From positions 12,338,001 to 12,402,000 of the forward strand of contig NC_073389.1 of NCBI RefSeq assembly GCF_028641065.1: a stretch of 64,000 bases of DNA, in the 5' to 3' direction. The position numbers were made by a program, and so were the translations under genes. Shown one piece after another: positions 5,875 to 64,000 of the stretch (positions are counted from its first letter, which is position 1; every line of letters begins with the position of its first letter). The DNA comes from Leucoraja erinacea. Taxonomy: Eukaryota. The notes below the pieces were generated by a model, which was given only the letters and a program-made list of their open reading frames with translations, was not told the origin of the DNA and searched no databases.

Positions 5875-7208
5875 GTCAAGTCAAGTCAAGTCAAGTTTAT
5901 TTGTCACATACACATACGAGATGTGCAGTGAAATGAAAGTGGCAATGCTCGCGGACTTTTGTGCAAAAAGACAAACAACCTATAAACACAATCATAACAC
6001 ACATATACCTTTACATAATAAATAATGGAAGGAAAAACGTTCAGTAGAGTTAGTCCCTGGTGAGATAGGCATTTACAGTCTGAATGGCCTCTGGGAAGAA
6101 ACTCCTTCTCAACCTCTCTGTTCTCACCGCATGGCAACGGAGGCGTTTGCTCTGACTGTAGCAGCTGGAACAGTCCATTGCAGGGGTGGAAGGGGTCTCT
6201 CATGATATTGTTGGCTCTGGAGTTGCACCTCCTGATGTATAGTTCCTGCAGGGGGGCAAGTGAAGTTCCCATAGTGCGTTCGGCCGAACGCACTACTCTC
6301 TGTAGAGCCTTCTTGTCCTTGGCAGAGCAATTCCCAAACCAGATGGTAATGTTCCCGGACAAGATGCTTTCCACCGCCGCTGCGTAGAAGCACTGGAGGA
6401 TCCTCGGAGACACTCTGAATTTCCTCAATTGCCTGAGGTGGTAAAGGCGCTGCCTTGCCTTACTCACGAGTGCTGAGGCTTGTGATGACCATGTCATATC
6501 CTCGGAGATGTGGACTCCCAGATATTTAAAACAGTTCACCCTATCCACAGGATCCCCATTTATCCTCAATGGAGTGTACGTCCTCGGATGATGTGCCCTC
6601 CTAAAGTCCATGATCAGCTCCTTCATTTTTTTGATGTTCAAGAGGAGGCTGTTATCCTGGCACCAGAGTGCTAGATCAGCCACCTCCTCCCGGTAGGCCT
6701 TCTCGTCGTTGTCTGAGATCAGGCCCACCACCACAGTGTCATCAGCAAACTTAATTATTGAGTTGGAGCTGAACCTAGCCACACAGTCATGTGTGTACAG
6801 GGAGTACAATAGGGGGCTGAGGACGCAACCCTGGAGCGATCCTGTGCTCAGGGTGAGGGACTTCGATGTATTCCCTCCCATCTTGACTACCTGGGGCCTG
6901 GCGGTGAGAAAGTCCAGGACCCAGGCACACAGGGAGGTGTTGAGCCCCAATTCCATTAGCTTCCCGGCCAGTCTGGTGGGGACTATCGTGTTGAACGCTG
7001 AACTGTAGTCAATGAACAGCATCCTCACATAGCCCCCCTTCTGCCTGTCCAGATGGGAGAGAGCGGTGTGCAAGACCTGGGAGACCGCATCGTCCGTGGA
7101 TCTGTTCGGACGGTATGCGAACTGCAACGGTTCCATGTTCTGAGGGAGGAAGGCGCAGATGTGTTTCTTCACCAGCCTCTCAAAGCATTTCATGACTACC
7201 GAGGTAAG
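5875..7208 (-). mobile_element. Rex1/Babar LINE, RT domain to 3' end
   Basis: 429-aa ORF with [28 protein letters not shown] and FADD; (TTGAC)n tail. Adjoins a SINE fragment at 5826-5868. Confidence 0.93.
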
Positions 7209-8599
7209 GACCGCCGGTCAACCCAGCGGGACAGGCAGAGCCGAGCCGGAGCGAGTGCCCACTCTCCACGCAGGTTGCAACCTGGGCCGCCATTGCAACC
7301 GGCAGGTGCCCCACCAGCCCATCGCCACCCCGGACATCTCCGGCTGCCCCCAGACAGAGACGGGACACCCCGGAGGGGGCGGGGATGGCCCAGCAGCAAA
7401 TCAACAGCGCTGGAGACCGGGGCCCGACCCTGACCACGGACGAAACACAGGTCTGCACGCATGCAGCAGTACAGTCGTCGAGAATGTTTATCGCCAGTGA
7501 CCCCTGACAAATCCTATGATTCCTTGCATTTTTCTGAATACCAAACTCACTTATTGCAGAGAGGGGAAGATGTGAAGAGACAGTGGGAATGTCTATAAGA
7601 GGCTAAGTGGCCAAATAGCTCCCCAGAACAAGGAGCTGGATATCAAGGTTGGTCAAGCTGACTTTAGACAAGAGGAAGACATAAATGCAGAAAACTAGGT
7701 TGGCCAGACTTTCAGTCTGAGTTTAGTAACACTATGACATGAATAGGTATTACTCACCACATGCAGGTAAATTACCTAGTGATTAATTATTGAAGGTAAG
7801 TTTTGATCCAGGAAGATAGAAACAACAGAACCAGACACAATGGAGCCTCTGTGTCCTGTATCTTCCTTATTTAGAGGTTAGCATTCAAAGCATCCCTTAT
7901 TATCTTTTGAAATGATTCCCAAAGTATCTGGAAGGCAACAGCAGGGGTATAACTAACTCCTATCAGTAAGCCAAGGCAGCAATAACTTTGCCCTGGTGGT
8001 CAACAGTGAACAACCCATGTTTGTTTGGATGGAAAGTTAACTGGACCATTCTGATTAAAATCTGATATTACTTTGATGACTTTGAAAAGGGTCTGAAGAA
8101 GGGTCGGGTCCCAAAACATCACCTGACCATGTTCCCCAGCGATGCTGCTTGACCCAGCAATTTATGTTTTTTTCTCTGTGGCTGGCGCTTGCGTTAATGT
8201 CATCCAGTGGTCCAAGTGACCCAGAACCACATTTTGCCAGATACATTGACTGTTGGGTATTCCTGGTATAACCTGGTCTATCCAGTAAAGACTGGATTGG
8301 GAAAATTTGTTAGGCATGTCATACCTTATCCTTTATCCTTCAGGGCTTCTGACTGCTTGGCAGGAACCTCACATACACACCTACAGTCAAGAAGCCCGTC
8401 CCCCACCATCATAATCTCTTGATTCCCAGTCACTGACCCTCTGATTTGCTGTGCCCATTTCCCCATTCTCTCAATCTGCCTCTCCACTGCCAGCTTATGT
8501 GAGTATCTCTGATTGCTATCCTCCACTATCAGCCGAACCTCTCAGTACGGAGAAGAGTTGGTGGGGTTGGTGGCATAAGGTACTTATCTTCAATCTCTC

Positions 8600-10339: not shown

Positions 10340-13300
10340 TGAAATTGAGAATGAATATTGAACTGAAGTTAATGAAAAGTCAATTTTTTTCCCATTTCTT
10401 AATGTGCCTGTCACAACTCATTAAGTTGTCTGTGGATAGGAAGCACCATCAGGTCTTAAAGGTAAGACCTGGTGGTGCTTCCTATCCACAGACAACTTCA
10501 TGAATTGTGACAGGCACATTATCCAGTTTCTTGAAACATTTAATCTAGGATTGAGCAAAACTCAATTCTGGGTAAAGTACTTTATAGACTCGTTATTGTA
10601 ATTTACTGAGAAAATACATTTCCATCTTAATTTAATTTCCAATGAGGAACAAATTATCTCTTTGTTTCCGTTGCTAAGTGTGTGCCTGAGTTTCAGCTGT
10701 TAATTCTACAAACCTCTCTAGATTCAATTGCGTAAAAGTCAAAGGAATTGACCGCGTGGGGGTGAGTACAACTAATAGCTGATGATTCATGGATAATTTC
10801 TCCAAATTATCCTGCTTCTTTTGAGTGACAGAGAAAAATATATACTATTGTTCTCCTTTGCCCAGAACAAAACCTGTCCTTTCATTTGCATTATTTATCA
10901 TTACAAAGAACTTAGGATGCATAGTGACAAACAGGAACCGGACCATAATTATGAGGGATTTAAATATAGGGACAGCAAAACATAAAATATCAGATTTATA
11001 TGAAATATGACATGGATAAATGTAATAAATTCAACAAAATGTCAAATACTTAATGCATCAAAAAATTGCAGAAGAATATAAAACTGGGTCAAATTTTTAA
11101 TTCAAAGTATACATGTTTTTCAGCAATGTAGACTGCGTGCAACTATTTTGCAAAATAAATCAGTAAATTTGATGCATTTTAAATGTATGTCAAAGGAAGG
11201 TCATTCGGACAATTGACAAAAAATGCTCCATGTTTTTTTTATTATTGTAGTTGGATAGGCTACATTACCCATGTTAAATTAAGTATAATGAAAGCGCAAT
11301 TTACTTTGTTACAGTTTGTACACTCTACGTGGGACAAAGAGCCCTGAATCTAACCACAATACACATCCCATTGCTGGTAGACAAAAATGCTGGAGAAACT
11401 CAGCGAATGAGGTAGCATCTATGGAGCGAAGGAAGTAGGCAACGTTTTGGGTCGAAACCCTTCTTCAGACTGTTGTGAGGGTGGAGTGAGGGGGGGGGGG
11501 GGGGGGGGGAGAAGAAAGAAAGAAAGGAAGAGGTGGAGCCAGTGGGCTGAGGGAGAGCTGAGAAGGGGAGGAGAAAGTAGGGACTACCTGAAATTAGATA
11601 AGTCAATGTTCATACCGCTGGGGTGCAAACTGCCCAAGCGAAATATGAGGTGCTGCTCCTCCAATTTACAGTGGTCCTCATTCTTTGCCCATGGAGGAGG
11701 TCCAGGACAGAGAGGTCGGATTTGGAATGGGAGGGGGAGTTGAAGTGCTGAGCCACCGGGTGATCAGGTTGGTTATTGCAAACCAAGCGGAGGTGTTCGG
11801 CGAAGCGATCGCCAAGCCTACGCTTGGTCTCACCGATGTAGAGCAGCTGACATCTAGAGCAGCGAATGCAATAGATGAGGTTGGAGGAGGTGCAGGTGAA
11901 CCTCTGCCGCACCTGGAACGACTGCTTGGGTCCTTGAATGGAGTCAAGGGGAGAGGTAAAGAGACAAGTGTAGCATTTCCTGCGGTTGCAAGGGAAAGTG
12001 CCCAGAGAGGGGGTGGTTCGGGTGGGAAGGGAAGAATTGACCAGGGAGGGAGTGGTCTCTGCGGAAAGCAGACAGGGGAGGTGATGGGAAGATGTGGCAA
12101 GTGGTGGGATCACGTTGGAGGTGGCGAAAATGTCGGAGGATTATTTGTTGTATGTGACGGCTGGTAGGGTGGAAGGTGAGGACAAGGGGGACTCTGCCCT
12201 TATTACGAGTGGGGGGGATGGGGCGTGAGAGCAGACTTACGGGGTATGGGAGAGACCCTGGTGAGAGCCTCATCTATAGTGGAAGAGGGGAACTCCCGTT
12301 CCCTGATGAATGAGGACATCTCCGATGCCCTGGTGTGGAACACCTCATCCTGGGTGCAGATGCGGCGTAGACGGAGGAATTGGGAATAGAGGATGGAGTC
12401 CTTACAGGAAGCAGGGTGGGAAGAAATGTAGTCCAGTTAGCCATGGGAGTCAGTGGGTTTATAGTGGATGTCGGTCAATAGTCTATCACCTGCGATGGAG
12501 ATAGTAAGGTCAAGAAATGGTAGGGAAATGTCGGAAATGGCCCAGGTGTATTTGAATGCCGGATGGAAGTTAGTGGTGAAATGGATGAAGTCAGTGAGTT
12601 GTGTGTGAGTGCAGGAGGTAGCACCAATGCAGTCGTCGATGTAGCGGAGGTAGAGTTCAGGGATAGGGCCCATGGTACACCTCGAACAAGGATTGTTCGA
12701 CGTACCCTACAAAGAGGCAGGCATAGCTAGGGCCCATACGCGTGCCCATAGCTACGCCTTGTATTTGGAGGAAATGAGAGGAGTCAAACAAAAAGTTATT
12801 AAGGATAAGGACCAGCTCTGCTAGGCGGAGGAGAGTATCAGTAGACGGGGATTGGTTGGTTTTGTGGTCGAGGAAGAAACGGCGGGCTTTGAGACCCTCC
12901 TGGTGAGGGATGGAGGTGTAGAGTGACTGGATATCCATGGTGAAGATGAGGGAATGGGGGCTTAGAAAACGGAAGTCCTGGAGTAGATGAAGAGCATGTG
13001 AGGTGTCTTGAACATAGGTAGGGAGGGATTTAACCAAGGGGGATAGGATGGGGTCGAGGTATGTGGAAATATGTTTGGTAGAACACTAACAGGCAGAAAC
13101 AATGGGTCTGCCAGGACAGTCAGGTTTGTGGATTTTGGGGAGAAGATAAAATCGGGCCGTGCGGGGCTGGGGAACGATGACGGAAGCTTGGGAGGGCAGG
13201 GAGCCGGAGTTGATGAAGTCGGTGATGGTGCTAGAGATAGTGGCCTGGTGCTCGTCTGTGGGGTCATGGTCCAAAGGGCATTAAATACTAATAGCAATAT

Positions 13301-13835
13301 ACCATTGCTATGTATTAGCAAGGGGCAAACATTGAGCCAGTTCCGAGAATTTGAACAATTTTTCAAATGTACATTTAATATCTATCCAATTTCAAACATT
13401 TACACCATAAATTTAGAGAAATTATCCATGAGTCATCAGCTATTAGTTGTACTCACCTCCACACAGTCAATTCCTTTGACTTTTACGTAACTGAATCTAG
13501 AGAGGTTTGTAGAATTATCAGCTGAAACTCAGGCTCACAATTCGCAATGTAAATAACTAAATAATTTGTTCCGCATTTGAAATAATTCCAAATTAAGATG
13601 GAAGTGTATTTTTCTCAGTAAATTACAGTTATGAGTCTATAAAGTACTTTATCGAAGAGAATTTTGCTCAATCTTAGATTAAATGTTTTAAGAAACTGGA
13701 TAATGTGCCTGTCACATCTCATGAAGTTTTTCTGTGGATAGGAAGCACCACCAGGTCTTTTCTCTTTTAGCTCTAAGTAATGGGACCATTCTTTTAGACT
13801 TTTCATTATCTTCAGTTCAATATTAATTCTCAATA
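10340..13835. repeat. Long inverted repeat (arms about 10340-10810 and 13410-13835) enclosing a Penelope insertion
   Basis: aagacctggtggtgcttcctatccacag...ggataatttctc at 10464-10802 is reverse-complemented at about 13415-13760. attgagaatgaatattgaactgaag (10344) is mirrored at about 13810-13834. Confidence 0.85.
11376..13273 (-). mobile_element. 5'-truncated Penelope-like retroelement (RT, GIY-YIG endonuclease, 3' pLTR)
   Basis: GVAMGTRMGPSYACLF, YLRYIDD, LPFLDL and NLIYCIRCSRCQLLYIGETKRRLGDRFAEH; frameshifted. Confidence 0.95.
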
Positions 13836-18954: not shown

Positions 18955-21320
18955 TTGTGTAGGAAGGAGCTGCAGATGCTGGTTTAAAGTGAAGATAGAC
19001 ACAAAAAGCTGGAGTAACTCAGCGGGACCGGCAGCATCTCTGGAGAGACGGAATGGGTGACGTTTCGGGTCGACACCCCAGACTGGTTAGGGATAAGGAA
19101 AACGAAAAATTTAGATGATGATGTAGAGATATAAAGAACAATGAATGAAAGATATGCAAAAAAGTAACGATGATAAAGGAAACAGGCCCCAGGTGGTCAA
19201 GATGGGGAGACATACATCTAACCCCCTCAACCTGAACACAGGATCCCCCCAGGTTTGCTTCATTAGCTCCCTACTGTACTACCTGTACACACATGACTGT
19301 GTGGCCAGGTTCAGCTCCAACTCCATCATCATGTTTGCTGATGACACTGTGGTGGTGGGCCCGATCTCCGATAACGATGAGAAGGCCTATCGGGAGGAGG
19401 TGGCTGATCTGGCACTCTGGTGTCAGAACACCAGCCTCCTCTTGAATGTCACAAAAACTAAGGAGCTGATTGTGAACTTTAGAAGGGCATAACATCCGAG
19501 GACGTACACGCCACTGGAGATAAATGGGACTACTGTGGATAGGGTGAGTTGCTTTAATCAAAGGATCTGACATGGACAACACACACACACTGATGAATAA
19601 GGCAAGGCAGCGCCTTTACCACCTCAGGCAGCTGAGGAAATTCAGAGTCTCTCTGAGGATCCTTCAGTGCTTCTACTCTGGAGCTGTAGAAAGCATCTTG
19701 TCCGGCAACATCACAAACTGGTTTGGGAACTGCTCTGCCCAGGACAGGAAGGCTCTGCAGAGTAGTGCGCTCGGCCGAACGCACTATGGGAACTACACTC
19801 GCCTCCCTGCAGGACCTATACACCAGGAGGTGCATATCCAGAGCCAGCAACATTATGGGGGACCCCTACCACCCCAGCAACGGACTGTTCCAGCTGCTAG
19901 GTCAGGCAAACGCCTCCGCTGTCATGCTGTGAAAACAGAGAAGATTAGACGGAATTTCTTCCCACAGGCCATCAGGACTGTAAACTCTTATCTCACCAGG
20001 GACTAATTTACTGTACTAATTTACTGTTGTATTATGTCTTTTGTAAAAAAATATTTTCTAACATGTAAATACTGATTCTGTTCTATTCTGTTCTGTAGTT
20101 TTGCACAATCCGCAGGCATTGCCACTTTCATTTCACTGCACATCTTGTATGTGTATGTGACAAATAAAATTGACGTTGGTGCGGCTTGGGTGGGGGCGGG
20201 ATAGAGAGAGGGAATGCCAGGGTTACTTGAAGTTAGAGAAATCAATAGCTGCCCAAGCAAAATATAAGATCCTGTTCCTCCAATTTACATTTAGCCTCAC
20301 TCTGACAATGGAGGAAACCCAGGAATTAAAGGTCTGTGTGGGAATGGGAAGGAGAATTAAAGTGTTTAGCAACCGGGAGGTCAGGTAGGTTCAGGCGGAC
20401 TGAACGAAGGAGTTCAGTGAAACGATCGCCCAGTGTACGTTTGGCATCGCTGATGTATAAGAGCCCACATCTTGAACAACGGATTCAATAGATGAGGTTG
20501 GAGGAGGTGTAAGTGAACCTCTACCTAACTTGAAAGGACAGTCGGGGTCCCTGGACAGTCGAAGGAGGAGGTATAAGGACAGGTGTTGCATCTTCTGAGT
20601 TTGCTGGGGAAAGTACTTGGGAAGGGGGTGGTTTGGGATGACTTAACCAGGGAGTTGCGGAGGGAATGGTCTCTGTGGAAGGTGGAAAGGGGTGGAGATG
20701 GGAAGATGTGGCTAGTAGTGGGATCCTCTTGGAGGCAGCAAAAATTTCGTTAAAATTTGTGTAGTATGCGACGGCTAATGGGGTGAAAGGTAAGGACTCG
20801 GGGGAGGGGAGCAAAGACGGAGCTGCGGGGTTCCGAGGAGACAGGAGTGAGGGCCTCATCTAGGGGGAGATGGGATCCCACATTCCCTAAAGAATTAGGA
20901 CATCTTGGATGTCTTGGTATGGAACACCTCATCTTGGTCACAGATGTGGCGTAGACAGAGGAATTGGGCGTAGGGGACAGAGTCTTTGCAGGAAGCAGGG
21001 TGGGAAGAAGTGTAGTCAAGATAGTTGTGGGAGTCAGAGGTTTTGTAATAGACATCAGTAAATAGTCTATTTCCTGTGTTGCAGACTGTGAGATCAAGAA
21101 AGGTTAGGGAGGTGTCAGAGATGGTACAAGTAAATTTGAGTGCAGGATGGAAATTGGTTGTGAAGTTAAAGTCCATGAGTTCTGCATGGATGCAGGAGGT
21201 AGCACCGATGCAGTCGTCAATGTAACGGAGATTGAGTTTGTGGATAGGGCCAGTGTACACTTGGAACAGGGATTGTTCAACGTATCAAACAAAGAAGCAG
21301 GCATAGTTGGGGCCCGTGCG
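18955..21320 (-). mobile_element. Older Penelope-like element interrupted by Rex1
   Basis: LRYIDDCIG, LTFLDL and YYKTSDSHNYL at 20895-21260; GIY-YIG remnant at about 20400-20520; 3' pLTR at 18955-19187. Confidence 0.88.
19188..20174 (+). mobile_element. Rex1/Babar 5'-truncated copy nested in Penelope
   Basis: [16 protein letters not shown] and [15 protein letters not shown]; ends gtgacaaataaaattgac. Confidence 0.92.
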
Positions 21321-29779: not shown

Positions 29780-30267
29780 TTAGTTTTCATCATTTTCTTT
29801 TTTTATTGAATTGAAGTCTTCACGTTTTACCCAGATTACTTCTGCTACATTGTTTTCCACAATGCCATTAGCTCCAGCTGCAGGTCTTTGCTTCATAGCA
29901 AATCTCATCTTTGATGGTGAGCTGTCTGGTGTCCTATTCGTGGATAGTTTGCCATTCTCGTTATGTCCATCTTTTGTGAAGCTGATTGCTTTTAGCTGCT
30001 CTTGTAAATCTTTTGACAATGACAAACTTTTCACCGACTGGCAATACTCATCATCGTCACTTAGAATATCGGTCTCTTTAACGTCTCCCTGTTCCTCATA
30101 CTTGGCAAGGTCAAACTGCTCCTCCACCCAGCGATCAGTGTCGTTGCTGGTCACCGATGACTGCAAAGTCGCATTATTTTGGCTGCGTCCAAACAGGTCA
30201 TCTGCATCAATTGTGAATCTGTTCCTGGATAGTCTTTTTTTACCAAGGCTTCTGCAAGGTACTGAAA
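29780..30267 (-). CDS. TIAM1: TIAM1 last coding exon (VSVPCRSLGKKRLSRNRFTID...DTDRWVEEQFDL...KETDILSDDDEYC...EVIWVKREDFNSIKKENDEN*)
   Basis: 488 nt from ttttaag|TT (phase 1) to TAA. Carries the TIAM1 C-terminal motifs RNRFTID, WVEEQFDL, DILSDDDE and VIWV.REDF. Confidence 0.94.
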
Positions 30268-31691
30268 CTTAAAAAGGGATAAGAATGCTTAGAATTAGAT
30301 GCTGCAATTATCAGAAGCAGAACTGAAAATACGCTGTTTGTCCTAAACGTTAGTTGTCCTTAGAATTGAACAAAGCAAGGGTTTTCTCTTGACTATAATG
30401 CTGATGATCATTTTGTGTATTCAGACATCATTGTACATGTAGGACAATGTTAACTCATGTAAAATATATGGAGCAATGATGTCAATAAAAAAGTACTAGA
30501 GGTAATGACTAAGTGTTCATCCAAATGTCATTTCAGCACAACAGATTTTGTAAAGATCAGATATTGGCCTGAATCATGCTGTCTGGCAGATGGTACTTCT
30601 GTTGGGATCCAGCAGCTATCAAGTGTTTGAGCCTCAGTGCTTCTCCAACCTTTGTGGATATTTACTGAAAGGGAGAAGTTGAACATGAGCACTACCTGCA
30701 TCTGACACCTGCCACACCACTGGCTTCACCAATGACTCCAGCGGCAGAGTAGGGATGTAACTAACAGAGAGGTAAGATGCATTGTCCATCCTGCCCTCAG
30801 CCTTGTGCTGAAAAGGTGCAAAATCAGTGGTGACCCATTCAGGTTAGGGGTCATCACCCTAAGGACAAACTGAAGTGCGAGAATTTAAAAAGCCAAGTGC
30901 TGGAGGAACTCAGCGGGTCAGGCAGCATCTGTGGAAGGAAATGGACCTACTATGTTTTGGGTTGGGTCTCCTCTTCAGATTGAACATTTTAACCCAATAC
31001 ATTGTCTGCCCATTTCCCAAATACAGCTGCAGCCTGACCCTCTGAGAACCTCTAACAGTTTGTTTTTTGCTCAAAATTTCAGCATCTGCAGTTTCTTCTT
31101 CATGAGTTTGAATGACTTTATTAGTTCATTTCAACATTTTAATCATGTTAATATTGTAATATATTTTCACTATATTTTTAATCCTTTATCTCTAGAGTCT
31201 AAATATTTAAAAAAAAGTTACAAATATCAGGTGCAGAGGGATAGCTTGTCAGCCCTCTTAATCTGAACAAAGTATGTGCAGGCACAGATAATGTCTGGCC
31301 TGCTGAGCAGTTCCAGCATTTAAATTCAGATTATCAGTATTTGTAGTATTTTGCTTTTGAATGCAGTTTCATTAAACACATTTTCATCATGTTCTTTTGC
31401 AAATTAATTGAACTGTTTCACAATCACCTTTGAGTTTAGGCATTTGATCCTGGTGTCAAATGCTACAATTTGTGTTTTATCTACGTGTTTTTAAGGTATA
31501 TGTCACAATATAAAATATCTAAGAAAGACAAACCGTGAGAAAAGTATCATAAGTTTGTGACAGGATGTACATAGTTAAGGAATAAAGATACATTCCAAAG
31601 TAATTTCATAAATACAGAATAATGCACCAACACCTGTGCCATGTGGCATTACTAATAATGTTTATCTTGCTAGATACCCTGGAATGCTTAC

Positions 31692-48238: not shown

Positions 48239-49734
48239 CAGGCACGTGCCATCAGGGTTGGCAAAGTAGGCAGTGTGCCTACCCCGACTAAAATTATAAA
48301 ATGGTAATTATTAAATATAAATAGTAAAAGCATGGGAGAATTATGCCTACCTAAGAGATCGATGTCTTAGGTAGGCATAATTCTCCCGTGCCTTTCATCC
48401 ACAGTACATGTAATACGCGAAAGTATGTGCAGCTTACGTGCCGCGATGCCGCTTCAAGCCTTCATTGACAAGGGGTGCTGAAGGCAGCTGAAATTCTGCC
48501 TTTGCACCGTGGAGTACGTGCATGCGCTGCGCAGCAGTTTACTGCGCATGCGCAGCACAAGTTTCTTTGGCGGGTTTTTCAAACATGGATTGTCATTGTC
48601 TTAAGAGTATCTTAAGAAACAAAGAGAGAAGAATGGAGTTTGTGTACAAATAATGTAGTAAGTAAATTTCTTTGTTTAAATATGTTTTTAAATACCGTAT
48701 TTCCCGGCAATGAAGACGCTTTTTTTTAAACCCCAAAATAAGGCACGAATATTTACCTGTGTCTTGGAGGCCGAAGGTTAGGTTGTTAACCAAGTTAGGT
48801 TGTTAACTGTTGGAGCTTACCGTTGTGTCAGCGCGAGTAACCTCAATTGGTCCCTTGATCGCGCTGACACAGGAGTAAGCTCCACCGCCCGCTGACCTGT
48901 TATCCATCACCCGCTGATCCGCTCTTGAGCTGGTCCCCTCACTGTCCGGTCTACATTCAAAGACACGGATGGGGCAGTAAATGCCATGTAGTGTCACCCA
49001 GCGCAGCAAGTGAGGCCATGTCCTGCTCCCAGCGGCAGTCGGAATTTAAGGATTTGCGGGAAGCGGCTGACATGAGTGAGGCCAGCGAGCGGCAGGAGTA
49101 AGGTGCTCAGACGGAGAGCACTGCCAGGGGTGAGCGGGCCGGCAGAAGGCGTTGAGGTCATGGCGGCCGCTCGCAGCCACCCGAGCTACTTCCCTCCCCG
49201 GCCACAATGCGGTGAGTTGCTGGCATGATCCCCGACCCCCTCCTTCTCAACGCTCCTGCCCGCGCTGACCCGGGCCTGAAGTGGTCCCTTGAACTAATAT
49301 TGTCATTCAATAGGATCACAACTGATTCAACGTGTCCCAGTGTGCTCCCGTTTTCCTCACCATCTCTCCACCTGCCATAACCCTCCACCCATTCAGTCAT
49401 TCAGAAGGAGGAGATTTGTAAGCATTTGACAAATTGAATTGTGACTTTCTTCATTTTTATTTTATTTTTTTTGAGCGTAGTAAATTCTATGCTCCGCCAG
49501 CCTTTTTTCAAAATTTAGCAACTCAAAATGGGGGTGCGTCTTCGACGCAGGTGCTTCTTCATTGCCGGTAAATACGGTACTTTATTAAGAGATATGGCTT
49601 TTGAAGACAAATTACTTTATAAAAGTCGACTGACAGCTTACGGAGAGGAGAACAAACTGCGCATGCGCGGTTTAAGATTTTTTTTAAAGCCGACTTAATG
49701 CCTACCCTGAGTAATTACTCACGGCATGTGCCTG
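48239..49734. mobile_element. Non-autonomous hAT element containing a nested mariner-type element
   Basis: TIR caggcacgtgcc/ggcatgtgcctg; 8-bp TSD gagtaact/gagtaatt. Confidence 0.85.
48695..49577. mobile_element. Non-autonomous Tc1/mariner (pogo/Tc2-like) element with a GC-rich interior
   Basis: TIR ccgtatttcccggcaatgaag/cttcattgccggtaaatacgg; TA on both sides. Confidence 0.88.
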
Positions 49735-59519: not shown

Positions 59520-60456
59520 CAGGTGCACAACCTTTTATCCGAAAGCCTTGGGACCAGACACTTGTCGGATTTCGGACATTTTCGGATTTCCGAATGGAAG
59601 ATTTTTAGCGTAGATTAGGTAGGTACGCGGGCGGCTTGAAAAGTCTGGAGCGGCTGCCTCCTCCCTGGAGACCGGGGAATCATTGTAAATCATTGCATAA
59701 ATGTTAGTCAGTTAGTTTGGAGGGATTTTATGTGGTGGTGGTGGGGTGTAAAGGGGGAAACTTTAATTCTTAGTCCCCTACCTGGTCAGCGACTCCCAAC
59801 ATCGCGGAGCTGGGGGCTCCGTCTGACCGCGGGCGGCGCCGGTTGGAGCTCTGACCCCGGCAACTCTACCCCTGGCTGCGAGGCGCTCCAAATCCAGCGC
59901 CGCCCGCAGCCGGACGCCCGCAGCCCCAGCTCCGCGAATGTTGGGAGTCGGCGGCCACAGCGCTCCGGAGCTTACCGCACGGCGACCCGGTATGGCATTG
60001 CCCGCTCCCCGCTGGTATCCCAGCACTGCGACGCCGCCGACTCCCAACATTCGCGGAGCTGGGGTTGCGGGCGTCCGGCCGCGGGCGGCGGCGGTGGATT
60101 TGGAGCGCCTCGCAGCCAGGGGTAGAGTTGCCGGGACGGAGCTACAACCGGCGCTGCCCGCGGCCGGACGCCCGCAGCCCCAGCTGGGAGTTGGCGGCCA
60201 CAGCGCTGCGGAGCTTACTGCACGGCGACCCGGTAAGGCATTGACCGCTCCCCGCCTCTCCGACCAGGTAGGGGACTAAGAATTAAAGTTTAACACTTTA
60301 ATTACAGTAGTACAGACCTGAGTTGACCGTGGGTCGTTTAGGGTCAAGTTTGGCGCCGAACGCGAGCTTTGGTGTGCAGACGACATCCTGGGGAAAAATG
60401 GCCGGTTTTCGGAGTTTTTCGGTTTCCAGAACTCCGGATAAAAGGATGTGCACCTG
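59520..60456. mobile_element. Non-autonomous Tc1/mariner (Tigger-like) element with internal GC-rich inverted repeats
   Basis: TIR caggtgcacaaccttttatccg/cggataaaaggatgtgcacctg; TA TSD. Confidence 0.9.
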
Positions 60457-61630: not shown

Positions 61631-61723
61631 CTGAAACACGAGCAGCAAACAAACAATGTTTATAGAGAGATAAATATAAATAACGAGATATTTTAATCAG
61701 AATATTTGCTTGAAATATATTAC

Positions 61724-61792
61724 CTCATCTTGAGTAAGAAAAATTTCTTTCTGCAGTGGTTTTAAATATCTCTCCAAGAGACAATTCAGATC
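61724..61792 (-). CDS. TIAM1: TIAM1 coding exon (DH domain; DLNCLLERYLKPLQKEIFLTQDE); upstream exons lie outside the window
   Basis: 69 nt, cag|GAT...GAG|gtaat, phase 0-0. Peptide matches vertebrate TIAM1 DLNCLMERYLKPLQKETFLTQDE. Confidence 0.95.
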
Positions 61793-62145
61793 CTGTGAAC
61801 AAATCAGATGTTAAGCAGATGTACAAAAAAGCATTTCACATCCTTTCACAGTCAAAACAAAGGTTTAAGAATGGGCGTGATTTGACACATCACCAGATTT
61901 GATCTCTTTACAAATCTATCCCTTGATTCCAACAAAATGAAACCAAAATAATTGCAATTGATTTTACGAGGTTGTAACTGTAATAATTAACAGACCCGGC
62001 ATTCATAGGGAAATCAACATGTTTTTGTAATATAAGCTTCTGCAATATTTCAAATTGCTCTTTCAAAATGGTTTTATACATTCACTACAGCAGAATATAT
62101 TGGCAATTCAGCATGTGCCTGTGAAAAGAGTGACCCCGCTTATAA

Positions 62146-62702: not shown

Positions 62703-62888
62703 ATCTATAATGTCTATTAAAGTCTTGTAATGTTTATTAAAATATTTTTTTTTTGCTTAAAGAAAAATCACAAAGTTAATACAAATATACTTGTATGATT
62801 AAAATACCTCAGATGAATTACGCACAGAACATAAAATAATTTTAATTTTATAAATTACTAAGTATCCAATAGATTACACAGTATAGTT

Positions 62889-63441
62889 CAGGGGTCGGCA
62901 ACCTACGATCCCCTGGCCGAATGCGGCCCGTAACCCGAAATCATCCTGCCCGCAGGCGTTTTTTTTCCCATAGTCATCCGGTTCACAGACTTCCTTCATC
63001 TCCAGCACCTCCTGGGCATGGTGACGCAAGGAGGCCTGCGCTGGCGGCCGCAATTGCGGAGCCGCCGAGCACCCGAGCGGGGCCGAGCTCTGGTTGTACC
63101 GCATCCTGCGCAAAGCCTCCGGCATGGCCGCGCACCTTCTGTGCCTGGGCTTCAGTGTCGGGATCAGGGTTTTCAATAGGCCGGGGACGAGTGAGTATGA
63201 GTATTGCAGCCACCTCCTTCAGGACAAAGCCAAGGCAATGGTTCGTAGGTTCACCATGTTCATGGGCGCCCTTAACTAGGGTCCAGTGCTCCGGGTGGCG
63301 TCCTCGAAGGAGCAGGATCTATGTGAACACCTGATTTGATGCCTGCCATCCGGGGCGGGATCTATCTGAACATGTGGTAGGTATGGCCCGTCATTCGCTC
63401 ACAGACATGCCTCCTATGCAGAACAAGGTTGCCGACCCCTG
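62889..63441. mobile_element. Non-autonomous hAT (Charlie-like) element with captured host sequence
   Basis: Perfect 16-bp TIR caggggtcggcaacct/aggttgccgacccctg; 8-bp TSD gtatagtt/gtatagat. Confidence 0.92.
63061..63190 (+). pseudogene. Captured first-coding-exon fragment of a CYB561D1/CYB561D2-like gene
   Basis: ELWLYRILRKASGMAAHLLCLGFSVGIRVFNRPGT followed by an A|gtgagt donor. Compare human CYB561D2 [32 protein letters not shown] and CYB561D1 ...LSRPGTS (recalled sequences). Confidence 0.78.
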
Positions 63442-63482
63442 GTATAGATACAGGACATTATGTCCACTTCATTGTTTAAGAG

Positions 63483-64000
63483 GGAACTGCAGATGCTGGA
63501 GAATCGAAGGTTACACAAAAAAGCTGGAGAAACTCAGCGGGTGCAGCAGCATCTATGGAGCGAAGGAAATAGACAACGTTTCGGGCCGAAACCCTTCTTC
63601 AGACTGATCGGGGGCGGGGGTGGGTGGGGACAAGAAAGGGAAAAGGAGGAGTAGCCAGAAGGCTGGGGGATGGGAGGAGACAGCAGGGGGGCTGAGGAAG
63701 GGGAGGAGACAGCAAGGACTAACAAAATTGGGAGAATTCGATGTTCATAACAAAATTGGGAGAATTGGTTGAACATCGAATTCTCCCAATTTTGTTAGTC
63801 CTTGCTGTCTCCTCCCCTTCCTCAGCCCCCCTGCTGTCTCCTCCCATCCCCCAGCCTTCTGGCTACTCCTTTTCCCTTTCTTGTCCCCACCCACCCCCGC
63901 CCCCGATCAGTCTGAAGAAGGGTTTCGGCCCGAAACGTTGCCTATTTCCTTCGCTCCATAGATGCTGCTGCACCCGCTGAGTTTCTCCAGCTTTTTTATG
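63483..64000. mobile_element. Young inverted Penelope pLTR pair (foldback), running off the window end
   Basis: 63514-63747 is a near-perfect reverse complement of 63770-64000; same family as 11376-11615. Confidence 0.92.
63912..63939 (+). ncRNA. Minimal hammerhead ribozyme motif in the Penelope pLTR (mirror copy at 63575-63602, minus strand)
   Basis: CUGAAGA-A-GGGU-UUCG-GCCC-GAAAC-GUU: conserved core boxes, a 4-bp stem II and a palindromic ACGU stem III. Confidence 0.65.

Follow-up and report, generated by a model that had tools for sequence, protein, structure and literature searches.

The 64-kb stretch of Leucoraja erinacea DNA analysed here (64,000 nucleotides, hereafter the window) contains a 553-bp non-autonomous hAT element with a coding-like, probably host-derived interior, which, for a cartilaginous fish, bears out part of an original prediction made from this DNA. 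The element is probably a Pack-TIR. We infer its parent gene, capture route and order of events as follows. Non-autonomous Buster-type hAT ends of ~120 and ~135 bp would enclose a captured genomic segment of ~290 bp that includes a 5′ coding exon and splice donor of a CYB561D1/D2 gene. The most likely route of capture would be template switching while an ancestral element was being repaired or replicated; the composite would then have moved as a unit with transposase supplied in trans, its ends kept because transposition needs them, and the present copy would have inserted antisense into an intron of TIAM1. The cargo would now be a decaying passenger, its start codon already gone. We place the probability of this explanation, with the events in the order given, at about 0.5. 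The features of the element and its setting are listed below.

29783–30268, minus strand: last TIAM1 coding exon
61716–61795 (ends approximate), minus strand: nearest TIAM1 exon, the element lying in the intron upstream of it
62881–62888, plus strand: left target site duplication (TSD), GTATAGTT, with TA at positions 4–5 (Buster consensus nnnTAnnn, PMC3517528)
62889–63441: the element, 553 bp
62889–62904, plus strand: left terminal inverted repeat (TIR), 16 bp
62905–63010, plus strand: putative left end of the transposon, with a copy of the subterminal motif at 62981; its inner boundary is approximate
62959–62973, plus strand: acceptor-like pyrimidine run ending in AG, from a pattern scan
62974–63024, no strand assigned: second period-3 segment, in a different phase from the main cargo and overlapping the putative left end
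63018–63020, plus strand: ATG in good context, in a frame other than that of the cargo peptide
63082–63190, plus strand: decayed coding fragment of 36 codons plus one base, with GC3 bias and two 54% protein matches
63191–63196, plus strand: phase-1 splice-donor motif GTGAGT, ranking in the top 3.3% of GT sites
63197–63300, plus strand: post-donor sequence, either from a parental intron or a further coding fragment, the frame open to a stop at 63277–63279
63305–63425, plus strand: putative right end of the transposon, with three copies of the subterminal motif at 63315 (minus), 63358 (minus) and 63397 (plus)
63426–63441, minus strand: right TIR, 16 bp
63442–63449, plus strand: right TSD, GTATAGAT, matching the left at 7 of 8 positions

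The two TIR arms (62889–62904 and 63426–63441) are complementary at 16 of 16 positions, and the flanking octamers GTATAGTT and GTATAGAT agree at seven of eight, for which the chance of at least seven matches is ~0.002; both the perfect repeats and the 8-bp duplication had been claimed and both are borne out. Across 100 simulated windows of 64 kb (order-3 Markov), three perfect inverted repeats of at least 16 bp arose, and a 7/8 duplication flanked none of them. Of the 26 such repeats in the real window, two have a duplication of this quality: the element itself and a pair at 10701–13517, which lies within a larger inverted duplication at ~10.4–13.8 kb. A 14-mer subterminal motif is present in four copies (62981, 63315, 63358 and 63397) and was matched by none of 60 shuffles; by analogy with the subterminal repeats present in most hATs (PMC10368747), it may be a transposase-binding site. 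If the motif copies belong to the transposon, its ends measure ~120 and ~135 bp, which leaves ~290 bp for the cargo. A hairpin structure in the element was considered and dropped (z = −1.26, with 14 of 100 shuffles equally good), and there was no Rfam match.

At 553 bp and with 16-bp TIRs, the element fits the definition of a non-autonomous hAT, i.e., TIRs of 5–27 bp, a length below 4 kb and an 8-bp TSD (PMC3517528). Its hAT group is likely Buster, for which the TSD consensus is nnnTAnnn with TA at positions 4–5 (PMC3517528) and elements with 14–16 bp TIRs are known (PMC12637253); the assignment is likely rather than established because a single AT-rich target site is no consensus. Pfam searches of its six frames returned no transposase family, and neither a partner transposase nor a second copy of the element was found within the 64-kb window. 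In AnBuster, 24-bp TIR-only ends are dead, ends of 41–64 bp are weak and 240 + 126 bp is best (PMC12637253), so ends of ~120 and ~135 bp could plausibly be mobilised in trans. The element resembles Buster-family MITEs such as Mar (PMC3517528), and the ends of AnBuster (PMC12637253), in its 8-bp TSD with central TA, 14–16 bp TIRs, non-autonomous state and ends of 120–135 bp. However, Mar is described as an internal deletion of its own transposon, whereas the skate interior looks like host coding DNA.

A coding signal is seen in a peptide encoded on the plus strand at 63082–63189, where G+C by codon position is 20/18/31 of 36. This bias was reached in 11 of 10,000 dinucleotide shuffles (p = 0.002 and 0.008 in other tests), the segment having been picked for testing after the peptide was seen. 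In the background of the window, 209 of 21,078 windows showed the same bias, as did 26 of 1,213 GC-rich windows, and most of those listed lie in or near retroelement-like frames. The minus-strand open frame at 62877–63218 has the GC3 signal in common with the plus frame. A phmmer search with a 40-residue plus-frame peptide against 1.84 billion proteins gave three matches, all unnamed and possibly human: two that cover almost all of the query at 54% identity and fall in the N-terminal part of the matched proteins (E = 4.7e-6 and 6.3e-4), and a third to a 934-residue protein in which no single stretch passes. At the level of sequence comparison, these matches support homology of the peptide to real proteins without giving it a name, and the interior is probably derived from host coding DNA. 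A stop at 63022–63024, which the original prediction did not mention, closes the frame on the 5′ side, and there is no ATG before the peptide, whose best 19-residue stretch has a hydropathy of 1.44.

As to the parent gene, we take the cargo peptide, as the original prediction did, to resemble the first helix of CYB561D1/D2, whose first coding exon presumably ends one base past a Thr/Ser matching 63189 (phase 1), and we assume that LFSWHP begins one Ser past the end of the helix found in the cargo. LFSWHP is a motif of the cytochrome b561 family (PMC11718626). A Ser codon split by the intron would account for the single A that precedes GTGAGT. LFSWHP (motif 1) is itself absent from all six frames of 62800–63520, as are six helices and four heme histidines, and the cargo is a fragment, not a CYB561 family member. 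Its putative likeness to CYB561D1/CYB561D2 (101F6) lies in the first helix and a phase-1 boundary before motif 1; it differs from them in having no start codon, no LFSWHP and no heme-binding core, and is at most a non-coding relic.

No match to a named CYB561D protein was returned by Pfam, the PDB, the Atlas or a word-index protein search. Neither of two cargo peptides had a Pfam family, the six frames of the element gave only a weak P53_C hit below the cut-off (E = 0.038), all four element queries were blank in the PDB, and the Atlas gave no usable match. In the word-index search, none of 24 candidates among longer proteins matched and none of similar length was retrieved; exact look-up of the element's open reading frames in the protein collection gave 0 of 9. 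As a control, the word-index collection contains TIAM1 of 11 named chondrichthyans. Retrieval was estimated at 0.89–0.94 at 90% identity and 0.42–0.52 at 80% for non-overlapping words, and higher if words overlap; the working of the filter was inferred, and since small candidate counts suggest a strict filter, the weaker power estimate was used. The blank result argues against more than ~90% identity to chondrichthyan CYB561D, if those proteins are present. The cargo is thus a decayed fragment, because it has no start codon and is probably not near-identical to an annotated chondrichthyan protein; as a relic, it makes no cytochrome. The accessible portions of PMC10005133, PMC10691727 and PMC7005374 and the supplements searched gave neither the N-terminal sequence of a CYB561D protein nor its exon structure. 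On this evidence the cargo is likely to derive from a CYB561D gene, by whatever route, and we make no choice between D1 and D2.

Comparison with known Pack elements would place the skate element in an existing class. For 100 animals, 370 Pack-TIRs are listed in the accessible parts of the survey by Tan et al. (2021, PMC8277862); 208 of these are hAT, the commonest type, and 115 TcMariner. Their cargo has a median of 224 bp and is 13.4% exonic; examples are an ERP44 coding exon with parts of introns, and the multicopy Pack-hAT-N8_XT with a CAPSL 5′ UTR (PMC8277862). A Pack-TIR is defined there by a non-TE interior of 100–5000 bp, a unique parental copy of at least 90% identity that is not flanked by TEs, and an interior that is not an intronless retrocopy (PMC8277862). 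The skate element likewise has a few hundred putatively non-TE bases between both ends of one hAT: its size and ends fit the 100–5000 bp range, and the codon bias and unnamed matches favour a non-TE origin of the interior. However, whereas parents in that survey are at least 90% identical, the skate cargo looks more decayed, and indirect protein evidence suggests lower identity. Rice Pack-MULEs (PMC5861414) are similar in that GC-rich gene DNA is captured and local GC raised, but they are MULE rather than hAT elements, with thousands of copies and a measured bias against one putative case in the skate.

The same cargo could instead have been copied by gap filling, without transposition, into a resident hAT, making a single-copy Pack-TIR that has never moved. 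Such in-place gap filling accounts for most single-copy Pack-TIRs and is usual in animals, an empty orthologous element having been found in 91 of 97 primate cases (accessible parts of PMC8277862), and it is consistent with the one copy within the window and with the 0 of 9 exact look-ups. However, this route makes the cargo the younger part of the element, whereas it is the cargo that has no start codon and has seemingly diverged from annotated chondrichthyan proteins (a negative of uncertain power), and the ends are intact. We regard in-place capture as possible, though on balance unlikely. The intact ends and a CpG observed/expected ratio (o/e) of 0.75 in the element versus 0.41 in the window contrast with the decay of the cargo and suggest that capture came before the insertion into the TIAM1 intron, in which case other copies would exist. 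Intact ends set against decayed cargo point to the rare multicopy class, of which Tan et al. list only four (1.4%), with GC-rich DNA in four of five multicopy cases (accessible parts of PMC8277862). Several observations weigh against capture followed by transposition as set out above: (i) the single copy in 64 kb and the rarity of multicopy Pack-TIRs in that survey, (ii) codon bias that spans the donor, (iii) the GC3 signal shared with the minus-strand frame, (iv) the modest hydropathy of 1.44 and (v) the blank results of the searches for a named match, although the word-index collection covers TIAM1 of 11 chondrichthyans.

The interior might also be coding-derived and yet come from a source other than CYB561D, be it a different gene, a mosaic or a frame read on the minus strand. 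The lack of a named CYB561D match is in line with this, as are period-3 bias at 62974–63024 and 63190–63279 and the minus-strand frames open at 62877–63218 and 62986–63318. The plus-frame peptide, however, has two full-length matches at 54% and a putative likeness to CYB561D that extends to the position of the donor, whereas 62877–63218 gave nothing above noise in Pfam or the PDB and 62986–63318 nothing in Pfam. We consider a different source doubtful.

Nor do we favour a plain GC-rich hAT MITE in which the peptide and donor arose by chance. CpG richness without visible cargo does occur in other TIR elements (59520–60456, o/e 1.01), and the tested segment was picked post hoc from a setting in which 26 of 1,213 GC-rich windows reach its bias. 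Against this are the phmmer E-values of 4.7e-6 and 6.3e-4, a shuffle p of ~0.001, the location of most of the listed background windows in or near retroelement-like frames and a GTGAGT frequency of only 2.5e-4 per position, which together make coincidence improbable.

Two other TIR elements lie in the window. The first (48695–49577, 883 bp) has TA flanks, TIRs of 25–30 bp at 90–92%, a GC-rich core with an ATG at 49160, an internal 26-bp inverted repeat and, at 49211/49212, a strong donor motif that ranks in the top 0.9% of GT sites by an approximate matrix. Its ATG-to-donor stretch (49160–49213) shows no codon bias (p = 0.98 over 18 codons, which have little power), no Pfam family was found in eight frames and no match in the PDB, and its interior has nothing in common with the hAT cargo. 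The second (59520–60456, 937 bp) is TA-flanked, consists of nested direct and inverted repeats and looks young. Tc1/mariner-type elements are reported to have expanded in skates (PMC12361510). CpG richness was discarded as a proof of capture: the second element, without visible cargo, is more CpG-rich than both others, and CpG richness alone is therefore no mark of captured islands. The original prediction had extended the case to a general system that shuffles CpG-island first exons, and this is unsupported, the 48695 element having neither coding signal nor match; since 18 codons give little power, cargo in that element is unproven rather than disproved.

The donor of the hAT cargo was claimed to have been kept and followed by intron. 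The donor motif is present: A/GTGAGT occurs at 63190/63191, one base 3′ of a Thr codon, and ranks as listed among 6,785 GT sites scored with an approximate matrix. The claim of an intron after it is weakened, because the next 30 codons keep the bias in the same phase (14/10/21 of 30; p = 0.007 for a fixed phase, 0.02 for any phase and 0.055 in a second test; equalled in 9% of background windows). Sequence after the donor (63197–63300) had no PDB match. Upstream, the bias at 62974–63024 (p = 0.003, equalled in 0.9% of background windows) is possibly a further coding fragment or a low-complexity effect, and this segment matched nothing above noise in the PDB or Pfam. With 7 and 17 segments tested in two rounds, both biases are leads; given the bias past the donor and the second biased segment, the cargo may be more complex than a single exon plus intron. 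The acceptor-like run and the donor would together bound a 217-nt unit, 62974–63190 on the plus strand. Judged from its length and orientation, this candidate cassette would shift the frame, and it lies on the strand opposite to TIAM1; the frame 62873–63331 is open through it.

Kept donor and post-donor sequence also bear on an RNA route, in which the hAT received a retrocopy of a transcript that was unspliced or incomplete. The window is rich in retroelement frames, skate repeats are LINE-dominated (PMC10115646), and the sequence after the donor is only a candidate parental intron. However, LFSWHP does not follow the donor position and there is no poly(A) tail 3′ of the cargo, and we consider retroposition very improbable.

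TIAM1 lies on the minus strand, where the exons match TIAM1 in the PDB and Pfam: residues 1054–1595 of Amblyraja radiata TIAM1 map from 61795 down to 29783, and none before 1054 map within the window. The last exon is 99% identical to that of Amblyraja radiata, its nearest named match, 88% to sawfish and 71–83% to sharks and chimaera, as expected of a rajid skate. With its cargo on the plus strand, the element would thus be oriented against TIAM1, as had been proposed, and would sit within an intron 5′ of the most upstream exon identified, provided that earlier TIAM1 exons, and with them the other end of the intron, lie past 64000. It has 60% GC against 21% in the left flank; the right flank is filled with repeats, and 559 bp of the window remain after the element. 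A true first exon of CYB561D in the skate, belonging to a gene that is nested in TIAM1 on the opposite strand and has its later exons beyond those 559 bp, would account for the CpG-island-like composition and the fair donor, but is scarcely credible for a sequence that is bounded by TIRs and a TSD, follows an in-frame stop without an ATG, sits between AT-rich and repeat-filled flanks and has no annotated protein close enough for retrieval.

Capture of gene sequence by such elements is already known in vertebrates, and neither the mechanism nor the class is new. What would be new is the lineage, this probable case being the first we found for cartilaginous fish, and perhaps the multicopy status. 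The element would extend animal Pack-TIRs to cartilaginous fish, elephant shark, the one such genome seen listed, having none in the accessible parts of PMC8277862, and a multicopy class would offer a test of the capture-then-transpose model. CYB561 is absent from the supplementary files of Tan et al. as accessible, whose tables may not name genes (PMC8277862), and neither the literature listings searched nor the accessible parts of PMC10115646 gave a report of a skate Pack-TIR or of the present element. The finding carries little weight for cytochrome b561 biology because the fragment cannot encode the cytochrome. A more elaborate history, which we hold to be a long shot, would make the element one of a multicopy Buster Pack-hAT family recently active in skates, its mosaic cargo (a CYB561D 5′ exon plus coding scraps) forming the 217-nt acceptor–donor cassette, which introns would tolerate in antisense orientation but which would be exonised or purged when in sense. 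Since no annotated chondrichthyan protein closely matches the cargo, capture might even have taken place in another lineage, followed by horizontal transfer; if so, a DNA transposon would have carried a host-gene fragment between animals.

A few further observations concern the element and its surroundings. On the minus strand, 62959–63024 (in frame 62877–63218) is protein-like, with G at the first codon position in 10 of 21 codons and no match above noise in the PDB or Pfam. The sequence at 63514–64000 forms a large fold-back whose arms, 138 and 101 nt long, are nearly perfect (98–100%) and come from a repeat common in the window; this fold-back is either a recent inverted duplication or an assembly artefact. 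An inverted duplication of ~450 bp (10354–10802 and 13431–13824) surrounds a retroelement-like region. Long minus-strand frames occur at 1656–2789, 5907–7217, 11613–13085 and 20524–21284, which resemble remnants of reverse transcriptase or endonuclease.
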